64,000 nucleotides of DNA from an uncultured Gemmatimonadales bacterium (GCA_963773095.1 CAVYZY010000008.1:86246-150245), one strand, 5' to 3'; counted from the stretch's first letter, positions 33,933 through 38,289 are shown. Notes: generated from the sequence alone by a model not told the origin. Translations and numbers: made by a program.

Positions 33933-35359
33933 ACCGCACGCGCCTGACCCTCGCCGGCCTCCTGGCCATCCTGCTCGCCCTCATCCTCGCGAGCATCCCC
34001 GGTCATCCCATGCAGATCGACGAGCCGTGGCTCGCCGAGCAGAGTTGGTTCCTTGCCCGCGACGGCTACGTCCACAGCAATTTCTTCACCGGAATCGACG
34101 GCGCCGAGCGGTACATCGTCCTCTATCACCGGCTGTTCATCCAGGCGCAGAGCGTGGCCTTCCGCTTCCTGGGCCTCGGGGTCCTGCAGGCGCGCCTCGT
34201 TTCCATCGTCGCCGGTATGGTGCTGTTGGGACTGGTCGTCGTGTATGCGCGGCGCGGACTCGGCTTCAGCACCAACATGACGGTGGCCGCCGTGGCGACC
34301 CTCCTGCTGAACCCGGTCTTCTTCTTGAGCTTCAAGATCGCACGGCCCGAGATGCTCGTGGCCCTGTTCGGATTCGCCAGCGTCGCCGCGACGGGGCAGG
34401 CCACCCACTCCGCACGCTCGGTCCTGTGGGCGGTGGCCGGGGGCCTCCTGGCCGCGTGCGCCATGCTCGCACACCTCTTCGGAGCGATCTTCGTGGGTGC
34501 GGGGTGCCTGGTGCTTCTGGCACGCCGCCGTTTTCCCGAGAGCGCGGCGTTCGCCGCGGCGGCCGTGCTGGCGCTCGTCCCCTACACCCTGGACGCAGCG
34601 CACCACTGGGGGCTGTTCGAGGCCCAGCTCCACGGCAGCACGGCGAGGGCCGTCACGACGTTCTCGCCCGTGAGCCCCCTGCTCAACCTGCTGAACGAGC
34701 ACAAGCGGATCTTCCGCACGCCGCAGATCATCTTCCCGTCCGCGCTGTTCTTCCTGAGCCTCGGCCTGGGCTGGCGCCTCGCCAGTCCACGTGTCCGCTT
34801 TCTGGCCGGGTACACCCTGCTGCTCATGGTGGCGCTCGGCGCCATCGCCGTGCCGAAGCAGGCCCGTTACGCGACATGTCTCGCGCCGCTCGAGACGCTG
34901 GTGGTGGTGGGCATCATGTCGCGCCTGGGCGGGCTCGACCGCTGGCGCCGGCAGGCCCTGCTGGCCGTCGCGGTGATGTTTGCGGCGTCCGGCGCCTGGA
35001 GTGACGGGCGCGATCTGGGAGGGAAGACCAGGCTGGAGCCGCTGCACCGGATCGTGGCGGGCACGATACCCGACGGCGCCTGGTGCCTGACGCCGATGCC
35101 GCTGCTGTTCAACGAGGTCGCCAGGCTCAACCTGGTGTCTACCGTCGCCCTGCGGTCGTCGGTCGGCACGGAGCCGGGTGGAGGCGCCGTGCGGTCGTTC
35201 GTTGCCTCCCGGAGGATCCAGTACGTCGTTGCCATGCACGGAGAACCGAGCGACACCCAGCTCCAGGCGATGGAACCACTGGAACTCACCTCCGAGGGCA
35301 TGACGGACGGAACGGCCTACCGTGTCTTCAAGGTGGTGTACCCCGACGCGGTTCGTTGA
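33929..35359 (+). CDS. ArnT/GT-C (family 39-like) membrane glycosyltransferase
   Basis: TM1 followed by DE motif (QIDEPW), RL.S, ARPE, many TMs; proposed CTG start at 33929 (first ATG is 34010). Confidence 0.75.
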   Translation: MNRTRLTLAGLLAILLALILASIPGHPMQIDEPWLAEQSWFLARDGYVHSNFFTGIDGAERYIVLYHRLFIQAQSVAFRFLGLGVLQARLVSIVAGMVLLGLVVVYARRGLGFSTNMTVAAVATLLLNPVFFLSFKIARPEMLVALFGFASVAATGQATHSARSVLWAVAGGLLAACAMLAHLFGAIFVGAGCLVLLARRRFPESAAFAAAAVLALVPYTLDAAHHWGLFEAQLHGSTARAVTTFSPVSPLLNLLNEHKRIFRTPQIIFPSALFFLSLGLGWRLASPRVRFLAGYTLLLMVALGAIAVPKQARYATCLAPLETLVVVGIMSRLGGLDRWRRQALLAVAVMFAASGAWSDGRDLGGKTRLEPLHRIVAGTIPDGAWCLTPMPLLFNEVARLNLVSTVALRSSVGTEPGGGAVRSFVASRRIQYVVAMHGEPSDTQLQAMEPLELTSEGMTDGTAYRVFKVVYPDAVR

Positions 35360-36425
35360 GCGGGGCAGGCACAACGTCACACGCGTGGTTCCCGGCCAGG
35401 ATCCGGGACACTTGAGCCCATTCGATCAGGAATGCGTCATGCCCATACGGGGATGAAATCTCCTCGTACCGCGCGTTGACGCCCGCCGCCCGGTAGGCGC
35501 TTATCCACTCCCGTACCTCATCTGGATAGTACAGGATGTCGGTGTCGATCCCGACGCCCACGACCTCACCGACGCGCTGACGTGTGCGGGCCCCGGCGAC
35601 GGCGAGGTCCCCGAGGTCGTGCGCGTCCATCGCCGCCATGAGGGCCACGTAGCTTCGCGCGTCGAAGCGCTCCACCAGCTTCTCTCCCTGGCGCCTCAGG
35701 TAGTGCTCCACATCGTAATGCGCGCGGTTCCGGGTGGAAGCGCGCCCGAACCGTTCATCGAACTCGACGCCGGAGCGGTACGTGATCATGGCGATGGCGC
35801 GCGCCGCCGCGAGGCCGTCAACCGGGCCGGCGCCCGGCGCGAAGTGTCCACCCTGCCACCGGCTGTCGGCCTCGATCGCCATGCGCTGTGCGCTGTTCCA
35901 TGCGATGGCCTGCGCGCTGGTGGCCGCCGGGGCGGCGAACACGACGAGCTGGTCGACCGGCACCGGCGACACCGTGCCCCAGGCGAGCGCCACCATGCCG
36001 CCGAGCGATCCGCCGGTGACCAGCGCGAGCCGGTCGACACCGAGGTGTTCGAGCAGGGGCACGTGGACCCGCGCCATGTCCTCCGGCGTGAGGGTGGGGA
36101 AGGGCGTGCCGTTGGTGTCTGCCGGCCCGGTGGAGCCGTAGCAGCTGCCGGGGAGGTTGGCCGCGATGATGGCGTGACGGCTGGTGTCGAGTGGGGCGCC
36201 GGGGCCGAGCAGCGGCCCCCACCACGCATCGACGTCGGGACTGCCGGTGAGGGCGTGGAAGACGAGGATCCACCCGTTCCGCGCCGCGGCGGCAGTGTCC
36301 CCGAAGACGCGGTAGCTGAGCCACGCGTCGCGCAGCACCTCGCCGCGCGAGGTACGGAAATCACCCAGCGAGAGCCGCTCACCCGTTCCGGTGAGCGGCT
36401 GGCCGGGTTCGGTCACGGTGTACAC
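35328..36425 (-). CDS. metX: Homoserine O-acyltransferase MetX
   Basis: HALTG, GSCYGSTGP, GGSLGGM nucleophile, DILY, GHDAFL; GTG start at 36425 or 36416. Confidence 0.92.
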   Translation of the reverse strand: MYTVTEPGQPLTGTGERLSLGDFRTSRGEVLRDAWLSYRVFGDTAAAARNGWILVFHALTGSPDVDAWWGPLLGPGAPLDTSRHAIIAANLPGSCYGSTGPADTNGTPFPTLTPEDMARVHVPLLEHLGVDRLALVTGGSLGGMVALAWGTVSPVPVDQLVVFAAPAATSAQAIAWNSAQRMAIEADSRWQGGHFAPGAGPVDGLAAARAIAMITYRSGVEFDERFGRASTRNRAHYDVEHYLRRQGEKLVERFDARSYVALMAAMDAHDLGDLAVAGARTRQRVGEVVGVGIDTDILYYPDEVREWISAYRAAGVNARYEEISSPYGHDAFLIEWAQVSRILAGNHACDVVPAPLNEPRRGTPP

Positions 36426-36435
36426 TCGGCGCGCA

Positions 36436-36951
36436 TCACGGAACGGCTTCGGCCGCAGGGACCGCCACCTCGGTGATCCGGCCGTTGTGCACGTCATACA
36501 CGAAGCCCCGGACCGGAACGCCCTCCAGGAGCAATGGTGACTCCCGGAGGAAGGCCACGTCATCGGCCACGCTCCGCTCGAGGTCCTCGAACGGCTGGAA
36601 GTCGATGGCCGAGGCGTCGGCACCCAGTTCGGTTCGCACTTTCGCCTGCAGCTGCTCATTGGTGAAGGTGAGCATGCCGCAGTCGGTGTGATGGATCACG
36701 ACGATCTCGCGCGTGCCGAGGAGCTGCTGCGAGATGACCAGCGAGCGGAGCGCGTCGCGTGCCAGGCCGCCGGCATTGCGGATGACGTGGGCGTCGCCCT
36801 CCTCCAGTCCGAGCGCCCGGGACGGAATGAGCCGGGCATCCATGCAGGTGACGATCGCGAGCTTCCGCGCCGGCGGCAGGGGCAGGCTGCCCAGTGTGAA
36901 GCCGGCGGCGTAGCCGGCGTTCGCGTCAATGAGTTCTTCGGTGACAGGCAT
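36436..36951 (-). CDS. Beta-carbonic anhydrase, clade D (Rv1284-like); possible COS hydrolase
   Basis: CMDAR, HVIRNAGG, RSLVISQQLLGT, HHTDCGMLTF, GFVYDV; RBS AGGAGG. Confidence 0.9.
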   Translation of the reverse strand: MPVTEELIDANAGYAAGFTLGSLPLPPARKLAIVTCMDARLIPSRALGLEEGDAHVIRNAGGLARDALRSLVISQQLLGTREIVVIHHTDCGMLTFTNEQLQAKVRTELGADASAIDFQPFEDLERSVADDVAFLRESPLLLEGVPVRGFVYDVHNGRITEVAVPAAEAVP

Positions 36952-36960
36952 CGGATCCTC

Positions 36961-38289
36961 CTAGGCGGACGCGGCGGCGGTCGCCGCGCGGGTGGAAGTG
37001 CTGGCGGACTTCTCGCCCAGGGCCTGGTCGAGGTCGGCGATGAGGTCGTTGATGTTCTCGAGGCCGACGGACAGGCGCACGAGCTCGGGCGTCACGCCGG
37101 TGGCCTTCTGCTGCTCCGGGGTGAGCTGCTCGTGCGTGGTGGATGCCGGGTGGATGATGAGCGACTTGGCGTCGCCCACATTGGCCAGCAGCGAGAAGAG
37201 CTTCACCCGGTCGATCAGCGCCTTGGCGGCGGGCGTTCCGCCCTTCACGCCGAAGGTGAGGACGCCGCCGAAGCCGCCCTGGAGGTACTTCTTCGCGTTG
37301 CGGTGCTCCGGATGCGACTCGAGGCCGGGATATGACACCCACTCGACGCGCTTGTCCTTCTGCAGCCAGGTGGCGACGGCGAGCGCGTTCTCCGAGTGGC
37401 GCTGGATGCGCAGCGGCAGCGTCTCGAGGCCCTGCAGGAACAGGAACGCATTCCAGGGCGAGAGGGCCGGCCCGAGGTCGCGGAGCAGCTGGACCCGGAG
37501 CTTCAGGATGAAGGCCAGGTTGCCGAACGCCTCGGTGTAGACCAGTCCGTGGTACGAGGGATCGGGCGAGCTGAACTCGGGGAAGCGCTTCCGCGCCGCC
37601 GTGCTGTTCCAGTCGAACTTGCCGGCATCGACCACGACGCCACCGATCGCGGTGCCATGACCGCCGATCCACTTGGTGGCCGAATGCACGACGATGTCCG
37701 CGCCGTACTGGATGGGGCGCGCCAGCGTGGCGGCGCCGAAGGTGTTGTCCACCACCAGCGGAATGCCGGCGGCATGGGCGATGTCGGCCAGGGCCTCGAA
37801 GTTCGGCACGTCGAGTCGCGGATTCCCGATGGTCTCCACGTAGAGAAGCCGGGTGCCGTCATCGATGGCAGTGCGCACCGACTCGAGGTTGTGGATGTCG
37901 ACGAACTTCGTCTGGATGCCCCACTTGGGCAGCGTGTACTCGAACAGGTTGTAGGTGCCGCCGTAGAGCGTCTGGGACGAAACGAGGTTGTCGCCGGCCC
38001 GGGCGAGGTTGAGGACGGTGAGCGTCTCCGCCGCCTGCCCGCTCGCCACTGCCAGCGCCGCGATGCCACCCTCGAGCTCGGCGACGCGCTTCTCGAAGAC
38101 GTCGTTGGTCGGGTTCATGATCCGGGTGTAGATGTTCCCGAATTCCCGGAGGCCGAAGAGGTTGGCTGCGTGCTCCGTGTTGTTGAACACGTAGCTCGTG
38201 GTAGCATAGATGGGCACGGCGCGCGAATTGGTGGCGGGATCCACCACCTGGCCGGCGTGAATGGCGAGTGTTTCCGGATGGTACGGCAT
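36961..38289 (-). CDS. metY: O-acetylhomoserine sulfhydrylase (MetY/CysD family)
   Basis: [66 protein letters not shown]. Confidence 0.95.

Follow-up and report, generated by a model that had tools for sequence, protein, structure and literature searches.

A clade D beta-carbonic anhydrase gene between metY and metX in a Gemmatimonadales family: a candidate carbonyl sulfide hydrolase behind a cysteine/methionine leader

Background

In a 64,000-nucleotide (nt) stretch of DNA from an uncultured Gemmatimonadales bacterium (GCA_963773095.1, CAVYZY010000008.1:86246-150245; the whole stretch is called the window below), a gene for a 171-amino-acid (aa) protein of the beta-carbonic anhydrase (CA) family lies between metY and metX. 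The three genes form a single compact, co-oriented unit on the minus strand, within 35328-38518, behind a leader rich in cysteine and methionine codons. The gene order recurs in seven genera of one Gemmatimonadales family, and at several loci from which metY and metX are gone the CA gene still stands behind a cysteine-codon leader. These features suggest that a soil and sediment bacterium uses the enzyme to release sulfide from carbonyl sulfide (COS). We give about an even chance to the reading that this clade D member of the CA family hydrolyses COS as its physiological reaction, in an operon induced by sulfur starvation; that it has a sulfur-supply role of some kind appears to us fairly probable.

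Microbial carbonic anhydrases are considered mainly responsible for the uptake of COS by soils, and the gas also serves as a photosynthesis tracer. The operon provides a testable case for what clade D enzymes do in soil bacteria. Its gene order, its Cys/Met leader and an apparent lack of sulfate reduction in the organism all point toward sulfur acquisition. A first-pass annotation of the same DNA had proposed a three-gene route from COS to homocysteine; its observation is confirmed by our analysis, and its interpretation is partly supported.

Results

Organization of the metY-CA-metX unit

The unit and its leader comprise the following features.

38513-38518 and 38489-38494, minus strand: promoter-like site, TTGACA and TAGCGT separated by 18 nt, both boxes conserved in an alignment of relatives
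38385-38483, minus strand: leader open reading frame (ORF), 32 codons including 4 Cys and 5 Met
38423-38444, minus strand: attenuator regions 1 and 2; region 1, CACTCG (38439-38444), pairs with CGAGTG
38321-38360, minus strand: intrinsic-terminator-like hairpin with T-run; arms 38346-38357 and 38335-38345, T-run TTTTTCTTTT at 38321-38330
36961-38289, minus strand: metY, O-acetylhomoserine sulfhydrylase (homocysteine synthase), 442 aa, by Pfam and NCBIfam models
36436-36951, minus strand: Cab-type (clade D) beta-carbonic-anhydrase-family protein, candidate COS hydrolase, 171 aa, by Pro_CA
35328-36425, minus strand: metX, homoserine O-acyltransferase (probably acetyl), 365 aa, with a probable GTG start at 36425

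The metY product matches Pfam Cys_Met_Meta_PP (PF01053) with 470 bits and the O-acetylhomoserine/O-acetylserine sulfhydrylase model TIGR01326 with 676 bits, above the curated cut-off of 495.1, which makes it a member of the MetY family. The CA belongs to Pfam Pro_CA (PF00484) with 50.7 bits against a gathering score of 25.7, the match covering residues 32-100 only. The metX product is an alpha/beta hydrolase (PF00561, 65 bits) whose top NCBIfam matches are nearly full-length alignments to MetX models that remain below the curated equivalog cut-offs (TIGR01392, 316 against 500 bits; NF001209, 306 against 331 bits); from the ranking of the models and the pairing with metY in relatives it is probably a MetX-family acyltransferase, its acyl donor not settled.

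As the first-pass annotation had described, the genes are co-oriented with gaps of about 9-10 nt: the metY stop is separated from the CA ATG by 9 nt containing GAGGA, and the CA stop from the first in-frame GTG of metX by 10 nt. A terminator is present upstream of metY only and a single promoter-like site precedes the unit; metY, CA and metX would be co-transcribed. Contigs from two metatranscriptome libraries match the window identically, at 36660-36863 within the CA gene (X19) and at 36341-36531 (X20), the latter spanning the CA stop and the metX start, and DNA contigs span metY-CA. None of the sequencing runs contained half of the sampled words, and the uncovered parts are uninformative in the RNA runs.

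Kinship of the CA protein

The CA carries the zinc ligands C36, H88 and C91 and the D38 and R40 dyad (C36-M-D38-A-R40 and H88-T-D-C91), aligned with the same motifs of 6jqc, and its translation contains the segments PLPPARK, CMDAR, RSLVISQQLLGT and HHTDCGMLTF that had been quoted for it. As the query of a PDB sequence search (HMMER alignments, ranked by E-value) it gave the following matches.

6jqc: carbonic anhydrase (CafC), E 2.3e-60
5ztp: carbonic anhydrase, E 5.5e-48
3las: putative carbonic anhydrase, E 6.2e-47
1ylk: Rv1284, E 8.4e-41
3vqj: COS hydrolase, E 5.4e-31, aligned over query residues 20-112 only
1g5c: beta-carbonic anhydrase (called Cab in PMC12035519), E 1.3e-24
3ten: CS2 hydrolase, E 1.1e-23
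1i6o and similar: E. coli Can-type, E about 0.01, all at or above 0.002

CafC, Rv1284, the COS hydrolase (COSase), Cab and the CS2 hydrolase are among nine PDB matches at E <= 1.2e-14, and this ranking supports the proposed placement of the CA in clade D, the Cab-type group to which COS and CS2 hydrolases belong. The label "Rv1284-like" is imprecise: by E-value the CA lies far nearer to CafC (2e-60) than to Rv1284 (8e-41), which is described as a good CO2 hydratase. Relative to 6jqc, 101 of 156 aligned residues are identical (about 65%, counted by hand on the alignment midline). None of the 120 homologues listed has a characterised name; all are unnamed or called simply "carbonic anhydrase".

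The 6JQC structure is that of Aspergillus fumigatus CafC, described in excerpts of PMC12035519 as a clade D enzyme with very low CA activity, 54.6% identical to the COSase of T. harzianum (ThCOSase). The same excerpts give, for COS, a kcat of 35 per s and a Km of 300 uM for the 171-aa COSase of G. trabeum (GtCOSase) and 135 per s and 634 uM for that of T. harzianum, and, for CO2, 1.4 and 0.28 Wilbur-Anderson units (WAU) per mg respectively, against 4.9e3 for bovine CA. Both fungal proteins are 18-19 kDa in size and are without the extra loop (Gly150-Pro158) of the Thiobacillus COSase; neither this loop nor the Leu25/Leu78 gate explains specificity, and the COSases do not differ in hydrophobicity from the CO2-active Rv1284, for which high CO2-hydration activity is reported (PMC12035519, in excerpt). 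In our CA, L25 and L78 are as in CafC, H55 and I73 are as in ThCOSase, and C36, H88 and C91 bear the same numbers as the ThCOSase ligands (PMC10880591, in excerpt). The CA has 171 aa against 219 in 3vqj, and the alignment of the two ends at residue 112; the Thiobacillus-type loop is probably absent, which does not define the class, since the fungal COSases are also without it.

A leader with the anatomy of an attenuator

The ATG of the leader ORF lies 5 nt past the -10 box, a short distance which suggests that the ORF is possibly leaderless. Its predicted stall stretch reads CMCPQMCIC, and region 1 (CACTCG) follows directly 3' of this Cys/Met cluster. Region 2, CGAGTGGACGG (38423-38433), also lies within the leader ORF; it duplicates the 3' arm of the terminator and can pair with the 5' arm. 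The terminator hairpin, whose 11-bp core recurs among the aligned relatives, has a predicted energy of -24.1 kcal/mol and lies 31 nt before the metY ATG; the predicted duplex energies are -10.3 kcal/mol for 1:2 and -18.4 kcal/mol for 2:3 (all ViennaRNA). Left unmasked, the sequence folds into the 1:2 hairpin and the terminator. Masking region 1, to mimic a ribosome that has stalled at the Cys/Met codons, yields the 2:3 antiterminator when the fold stops at the end of region 3; once region 4 is included the minimum free energy (MFE) fold is still the terminator, so the model requires 2:3 pairing to occur before the polymerase has transcribed region 4. Such an arrangement is typical of leader-peptide attenuators of the classical kind, with both of the structural elements, the terminator and the competing antiterminator, found in silico behind a promoter-like site and a Cys/Met leader ORF, and it bears out, as a sequence feature, the sulfur-amino-acid attenuator that had been placed upstream of metY. 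From it we infer Cys/Met-dependent read-through at the metY leader.

When the 271-nt leader was shuffled 1000 times with its dinucleotides preserved, a short ORF reached 4 Cys codons in 20 of the shuffles. Scanning the whole genome for short ORFs that contain 3 or more Cys and precede a terminator returned 12 distinct matches; none of them exceeds the metY leader in Cys count (4, a joint maximum), and its terminator stem is the longest. A Cys-leader regulon in this genome was considered and rejected, the metY leader alone being attenuator-like among the scan matches checked; the gap of about 80 nt upstream of cysE-cysK is without a leader ORF. Among relatives with linked metY-CA-metX, all 11 leaders examined (G000, which is the present genome, G007, G010, G008, G001, G006, G002, G017, G033, L005 and L008) have an ORF in which 3 or more Cys fall within a stretch of 12 residues. 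The same holds for two metY-metX operons that lack the CA (G005 and G013) and not for three others (G004, G043 and G047, with 2-3 Cys).

A SAM riboswitch was rejected as the attenuator of the window, Rfam giving no SAM-class match, nor a match to any other riboswitch, at E <= 1 over 30000-45000. One relative alone, G013, has such a match upstream of metY (L152:357-429, minus strand; SAM-II, RF00521, 37.1 bits against a gathering score of 36), and its additional Cys/Met leader ORF suggests tandem control. G002, G004 and G033 show a similar ...ACTTGC...GCTAAAG motif that Rfam does not call.

Conservation of the linkage

The present genome is assembled in 13 contigs and is 92.85% complete; for comparison we used samples of 61 related genomes and of 401 Gemmatimonadota genomes, and, across phyla, the best 80 of at least 577 homologous loci in a species-representative collection. 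Twelve of the 61 relatives have a strong CA match (E <= 6.5e-47), in every case flanked by co-oriented genes for MetY on the upstream side and MetX on the downstream side; the 18 loci with weaker matches (E >= 1.8e-11) encode other beta-CAs, and none of these adjoins MetY or MetX. In the phylum sample, 49 genomes have a CA match (E <= 1e-30) and 103 a MetX match (E <= 1e-40). Comparison by hand of the coordinates in both tables showed the CA and MetX to be directly adjacent in 21 of the 49 CA-bearing genomes (20 of 48 when G100, which is flagged unpublished, is excluded), so the linkage, for which the first pass had allowed that it might be unique to this genome, is not. All 21 belong to family f1, which has 33 CA-bearing genomes, and are spread over genera g1, g23, g13, g8, g16, g51 and g67. 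Because the arrangement is kept while CA identity drops to 49% and MetX identity to 61%, the linkage is real and old. A survey of CA genes in met/cys operons, proposed earlier, thus finds conservation across seven genera of this family, but only two occurrences (L005 and L008, both Gemmatimonadales) among the best 80 loci across phyla, and no met or cys neighbour occurs at 11 other Gemmatimonadota loci that do not belong to the linked clade. Most likely the linkage arose once, in one family.

The gap between metY and metX is a variable slot for accessory genes. In six relatives (G005 and G004, of the same genus, G013, G043, G047 and G057) metX directly follows metY after about 100-300 nt, with no CA. 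In G016, G023 and G034 a 340-aa gene of the AA_kinase family (aspartokinase-like) lies between metY and metX, and in G026 and G018 a gene of this family lies between metY and the CA (coordinates L093:430-1458 and L125:2534-3556).

CA genes that outlast metY and metX

Six loci (G075, G171, G179, G333, G411 and L011) have the CA in the same SpoIID-YajQ-CA-sigma-ALDH block as the window, with metY and metX gone; the five genomes among them belong to genus g23, are 91-99% complete and have no MetX at E <= 1e-40. In a quick CA tree (SH-aLRT support only), a clade with 100% support unites four of the six distinct CA-only sequences with the linked sequences L005 and G033, and G171 forms a separate pair outside that clade with L012, whose CA is identical to that of G075 (as that of L013 is to G333). 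For the four nested loci, that metY and metX were lost is the more economical explanation. In the same tree the CAs of two Thermoleophilaceae (Actinomycetota; L003 and L004) fall inside the Gemmatimonadales family clade, which could reflect horizontal transfer or poor resolution.

In front of the CA, G411, G179, G333 and L011 have a TTGAC-type promoter and an ORF that begins 6 nt past the -10 box. The ORFs start MTLVACPCCRPPAC (G411), MTLSLVRSACICSGPRSC (G179), MTLAAGLSCICPCPGRC (G333) and MSLAAMPSCTCTG (L011), the sequences being partial; they carry Cys codons and, apart from one internal codon in L011, no Met beyond the start. MFE folds place a strong hairpin between the leader ORF and the CA ribosome-binding site in all four. 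The observed Cys count was reached by 6 (G411), 47 (G179), 6 (G333) and 130 (L011) of 1000 shuffles each. Automated detection of a terminator plus antiterminator was negative in three of these four leaders, an antiterminator being seen for G411 only, and the U-runs of G179 and G333 are weak. In G171 (L176:4507-4770) a TTGACA/TATAGT promoter and a terminator-like hairpin occur with no Cys leader ORF; its leader of about 110 nt may hold a different regulatory RNA.

Because at four of six loci the CA keeps a Cys-codon leader after the loss of metY and metX, CA expression itself is probably tied to cysteine, and thus sulfur, status, and we take these leaders to be the strongest evidence for such a tie. 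The persistence of the CA where metY is lost also means that it has no dependence on MetY.

Neighbourhoods of homologues in other lineages

Eleven of the best 80 loci have sulfur or iron-sulfur (Fe-S) gene neighbours, as follows (immediate neighbours, with second neighbours added for ten followed-up loci).

L003, Thermoleophilaceae metagenome-assembled genome (MAG): SBP56, 4-nt gap (3961-5781)
L027, Thermomicrobium MAG: OsmC-rhodanese-CA-NifU-SBP56, co-oriented (2413-6391)
L033: FeS_assembly_P-rhodanese-CA-SufB-SufD (2499-7457)
L057: SufB (4001-6100)
L036 and L066: FeS_assembly_P (around 4500)
L058: sulfite-oxidase-like
L061: rhodanese-lactamase
L060: MsrB
L005 and L008: metY/metX

The SBP56 family includes methanethiol oxidases, and L003 and L027 look like volatile-sulfur gene clusters. 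The homologues within or beside Fe-S assembly genes (L033, L057, L036 and L066) belong to separate Actinomycetota lineages. One locus, L053, has a phosphoenolpyruvate (PEP) carboxylase neighbour; five are flanked by UvrC and NlpC/P60 genes, three adjoin an Inositol_P gene (CysQ or SuhB are possible), and the neighbours of the rest are unrelated or unassigned.

Sulfur metabolism of the genome

The genome has no match to the NIR_SIR (PF01077), PAPS_reduct (PF01507) and ATP-sulfurylase (PF01747) families, for which the controls were positive in 11, 14 and 5 of 14 reference genomes, respectively. PF01507 occurs in 10 and PF01077 in 4 of the 61 relatives, and neither of the two occurs in any of the 12 genomes of genus g1, several of which are 95-99% complete. 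A cysK gene (387 bits, above the cut-off) with an adjacent cysE-like gene is present. With cysK and metY in place and none of the three families matched, the cell would have two sulfide-consuming enzymes and no recognised route from sulfate to sulfide, and the lineage appears to rely on sulfur in reduced form. The idea that the CA complements missing sulfate reduction was not supported, as the absence is order-wide irrespective of the CA; it is context, not a test of the role of the CA. NHase_alpha, as a sign of thiocyanate hydrolase and hence an internal source of COS, had no match in the genome, nor in the control genomes, so that this negative carries no information; SBP56 had no match above the cut-off in this genome. 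A second, canonical beta-CA (210 aa; Pro_CA, 173 bits) is encoded on contig C11 of the genome.

Surroundings of the unit

The 3' end of the unit faces a convergent membrane-protein gene (34010-35359; 449 aa, with a weak PMT_2 match below the cut-off), which lies between metX and a sigma-factor gene and whose 3' end overlaps that of metX by about 30 nt; neither L005 and L008 nor the CA-only loci have it at this place. Upstream, and 356 nt from metY, a DUF520/YajQ gene (38646-39149) runs divergently. The interval from the start of yajQ to the metY promoter contains a GC-rich hairpin of 53 nt (38540-38592), which gives only chance-level microRNA matches in Rfam; the hairpin is present in G010 and G001 and not in G007 and G008.

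Discussion

A proposed sulfur-gated operon that would draw on COS

We propose that the CA was recruited into the direct-sulfhydrylation (metY-metX) operon of one Gemmatimonadales family, in which a single promoter and a ribosome-mediated attenuator would gate the whole operon. When charged tRNA-Cys or tRNA-Met is scarce, the ribosome would stall in the CMCPQMCIC stretch; region 2, released by the stall, would base-pair with the terminator's 5' arm, and the polymerase would read on into metY, CA and metX. The CA-family enzyme would then convert COS, and possibly also CS2, to CO2 and H2S, MetX would make O-acylhomoserine, and MetY would combine it with the H2S to give homocysteine, while CysK would be able to use the same sulfide. 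That COS is the substrate and that MetY uses the released sulfide is what we infer. Such a route would matter to this organism, since no assimilatory sulfate-reduction genes were found in it. The more specific picture of a dedicated bacterial trace-gas sulfur module in one family of Gemmatimonadota, in a genus with no sulfate-reduction genes found, in which a probably leaderless poly-Cys/Met ORF senses shortage and a COS-specialised CA feeds MetY, with the CA under Cys-codon control even where there is no methionine synthesis, we hold to be possible, its chances falling a little short of even.

Several points weigh against this proposal. The preference of the CA for COS or CO2 is not readable from its sequence, since Rv1284, which is CO2-active, is not set apart from the COSases by either the loop or the Leu25-type gate, and clade D also holds true CO2 hydratases, Rv1284 among them (PMC12035519, in excerpt). 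The linkage probably had a single origin and is missing in 78 of the best 80 loci and in the 11 further Gemmatimonadota loci; the CA is dispensable, as shown by the same-genus G005 and G004 with their CA-less metY-metX; and the amino-acid kinase found in the same slot of some relatives implies that the slot also takes carbon-skeleton genes. Support from shuffles for single leaders is modest (6 to 130 of 1000), two of the six CA-only loci (G171 and G075) have leaders without a Cys ORF, and that of L011 has just 2 Cys. The neighbour counts (11 of 80 with sulfur genes) stand without a background control. The contigs from RNA libraries may derive from DNA and are no proof of a single transcript. 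Nor does the CA track a lack of sulfate reduction: the linked relative G017, which carries the CA in the operon, also has PAPS_reduct and NIR_SIR matches.

The supply of COS is a further difficulty. At atmospheric level the dissolved concentration is about 1e-11 M (from a Henry constant and mixing ratio), at which, with a kcat/Km of about 2e5 per M per s, one active site would perform an estimated 0.2 turnovers per day; 10,000 copies would yield some 2e3 sulfur atoms per day against about 1e7 needed per cell. Atmospheric COS, named earlier as a sulfur supply, is by this estimate quantitatively insufficient: it looks too low for growth, and the pathway would feed the cell only where local COS or CS2 is far higher. 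A contribution to the soil COS sink could exist despite the low supply.

The CA might instead be an ordinary CO2 hydratase, providing bicarbonate for the carboxylation of PEP or pyruvate to oxaloacetate and thus, by way of aspartate and homoserine, for the carbon skeleton of methionine. Its beta-CA zinc site is intact, it shares a clade with the CO2-active Rv1284 (PMC12035519, in excerpt), the aspartokinase-like gene in the same slot of G016, G023, G034, G026 and G018 implies that the operon recruits genes of skeleton supply, and the homologue at L053 adjoins PEP carboxylase. We nevertheless consider this unlikely: the genome already has a canonical beta-CA, the nearest characterised relatives are nearly devoid of CO2 activity, a carboxylation neighbour occurs at 1 of the 80 loci against 11 with sulfur or Fe-S neighbours, and the CA stands behind a Cys-codon leader where metY and metX are lost, although cysteine synthesis needs no bicarbonate.

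That persistence of the CA and its Cys leader beyond metY and metX would equally suit another role in sulfur metabolism, in which the substrate is CS2, another small heterocumulene or internally produced COS to be removed, and the sulfide goes to CysK or Fe-S assembly and not to MetY specifically. Homologues in suf operons or beside rhodanese or SBP56 (L027, L033, L057 and L003) and the presence of CS2 hydrolases in clade D (3ten) are in keeping with such a role; against it, fungal COSases of similar size have low CS2 activity and the CS2 hydrolase match (E 1e-23) is far more distant than CafC, and we rate it as quite unlikely. A neutral passenger, inserted once in the ancestor of the family and carried along by the structure of the operon with no tie to sulfur, would account for the probable single origin, the losses within a genus (G004 and G005) and the heterogeneous contexts of the homologues. 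It is very unlikely in our view, as the CA has been kept across seven genera while identity fell to 49-70%, the tight 9-10 nt spacing is preserved, and the gene remains intact at the same site after both flanking genes were lost, with Cys leader and hairpin retained at four of six loci. Hydrolysis of COS under control of sulfur status is thus the reading we favour. If it is true, prokaryotic clade D CAs of this type would be enzymes of sulfur acquisition rather than of carbon metabolism, and Cys-codon leaders before CA genes could serve to mark sulfur-serving as against carbon-serving CAs in metagenomes.

Relation to known systems

A beta-CA embedded in a small metabolic operon has a precedent in the E. 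coli cyn operon, where cynT supplies bicarbonate for cyanase; here, in contrast, no step catalysed by MetX or MetY uses CO2 or bicarbonate. M. tuberculosis Rv1284 (1YLK), whose gene presumably adjoins cysD/cysN, is of the same clade and of similar length. It differs in being more distant than CafC and in its high CO2 hydration (PMC12035519, in excerpt). The COSase of T. thioparus (3VQJ) and the CS2 hydrolase of Acidianus (3TEN) are clade D relatives that release H2S from COS or CS2; they are longer (219 and 204 aa), have extra elements that narrow the substrate tunnel, and serve the energy metabolism of sulfur oxidisers, not assimilation. CafC (6JQC), the best solved match at about 65% identity over 156 residues and with the gate residues Leu25 and Leu78 conserved, is by contrast a eukaryotic protein with no operon context, described as a beta-CA with very low CO2 activity (PMC12035519, in excerpt).

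Closest in proposed role are the fungal ThCOSase and GtCOSase, Cab-type clade D proteins of about 170 aa which, probably like our CA, have no Thiobacillus loop. Our CA shares their C36/H88/C91 ligands, and H55 and I73 of ThCOSase, and would like them turn COS into H2S for assimilation. Assimilation of COS sulfur through a clade D COSase is reported for T. harzianum, with the suggestion that prokaryotes carrying such genes may do likewise, and a COSase gene enabled E. coli to assimilate COS sulfur (PMC10880591, in excerpt). Assimilation of COS sulfur, inferred for this operon by the first pass, is therefore not wholly new, being already known from a fungus; what would be new is its bacterial form in a metY-metX operon. 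Full-text literature searches outside subscription journals and supplements brought up no description of a metY/metX operon that contains a CA, and a 2026 survey that places the known COS activity in subclade beta-D2 mentions, by a term search, neither operons nor methionine (0 occurrences each; PMC13098186). The fungal genes stand alone and are constitutive in strain THIF08 (PMC10880591, in excerpt), unlike the CA described here, with its metY-metX operon and Cys/Met attenuator.

For the leader, the nearest parallels are the trp and his leaders and the polycysteine leaderless short ORFs of mycobacteria, the latter experimentally shown to be cysteine-responsive attenuators (bioRxiv 10.1101/834739, in excerpt); Cys leader peptides had been predicted earlier in Actinobacteria (PMC1262725, in excerpt). 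In all of these, as in the metY leader, a short first ORF is rich in codons for the end product, and stalling would alter RNA structure; the spacing from promoter to ATG suggests a leaderless start here too, as in mycobacteria. The mycobacterial device sequesters a ribosome-binding site (bioRxiv 10.1101/834739, in excerpt), whereas the present leader combines Cys with Met codons and a terminator with an antiterminator. The leader would give Gemmatimonadota a Cys/Met leader-peptide switch of the classical terminator type, and the genes under its predicted control include a carbonic anhydrase.

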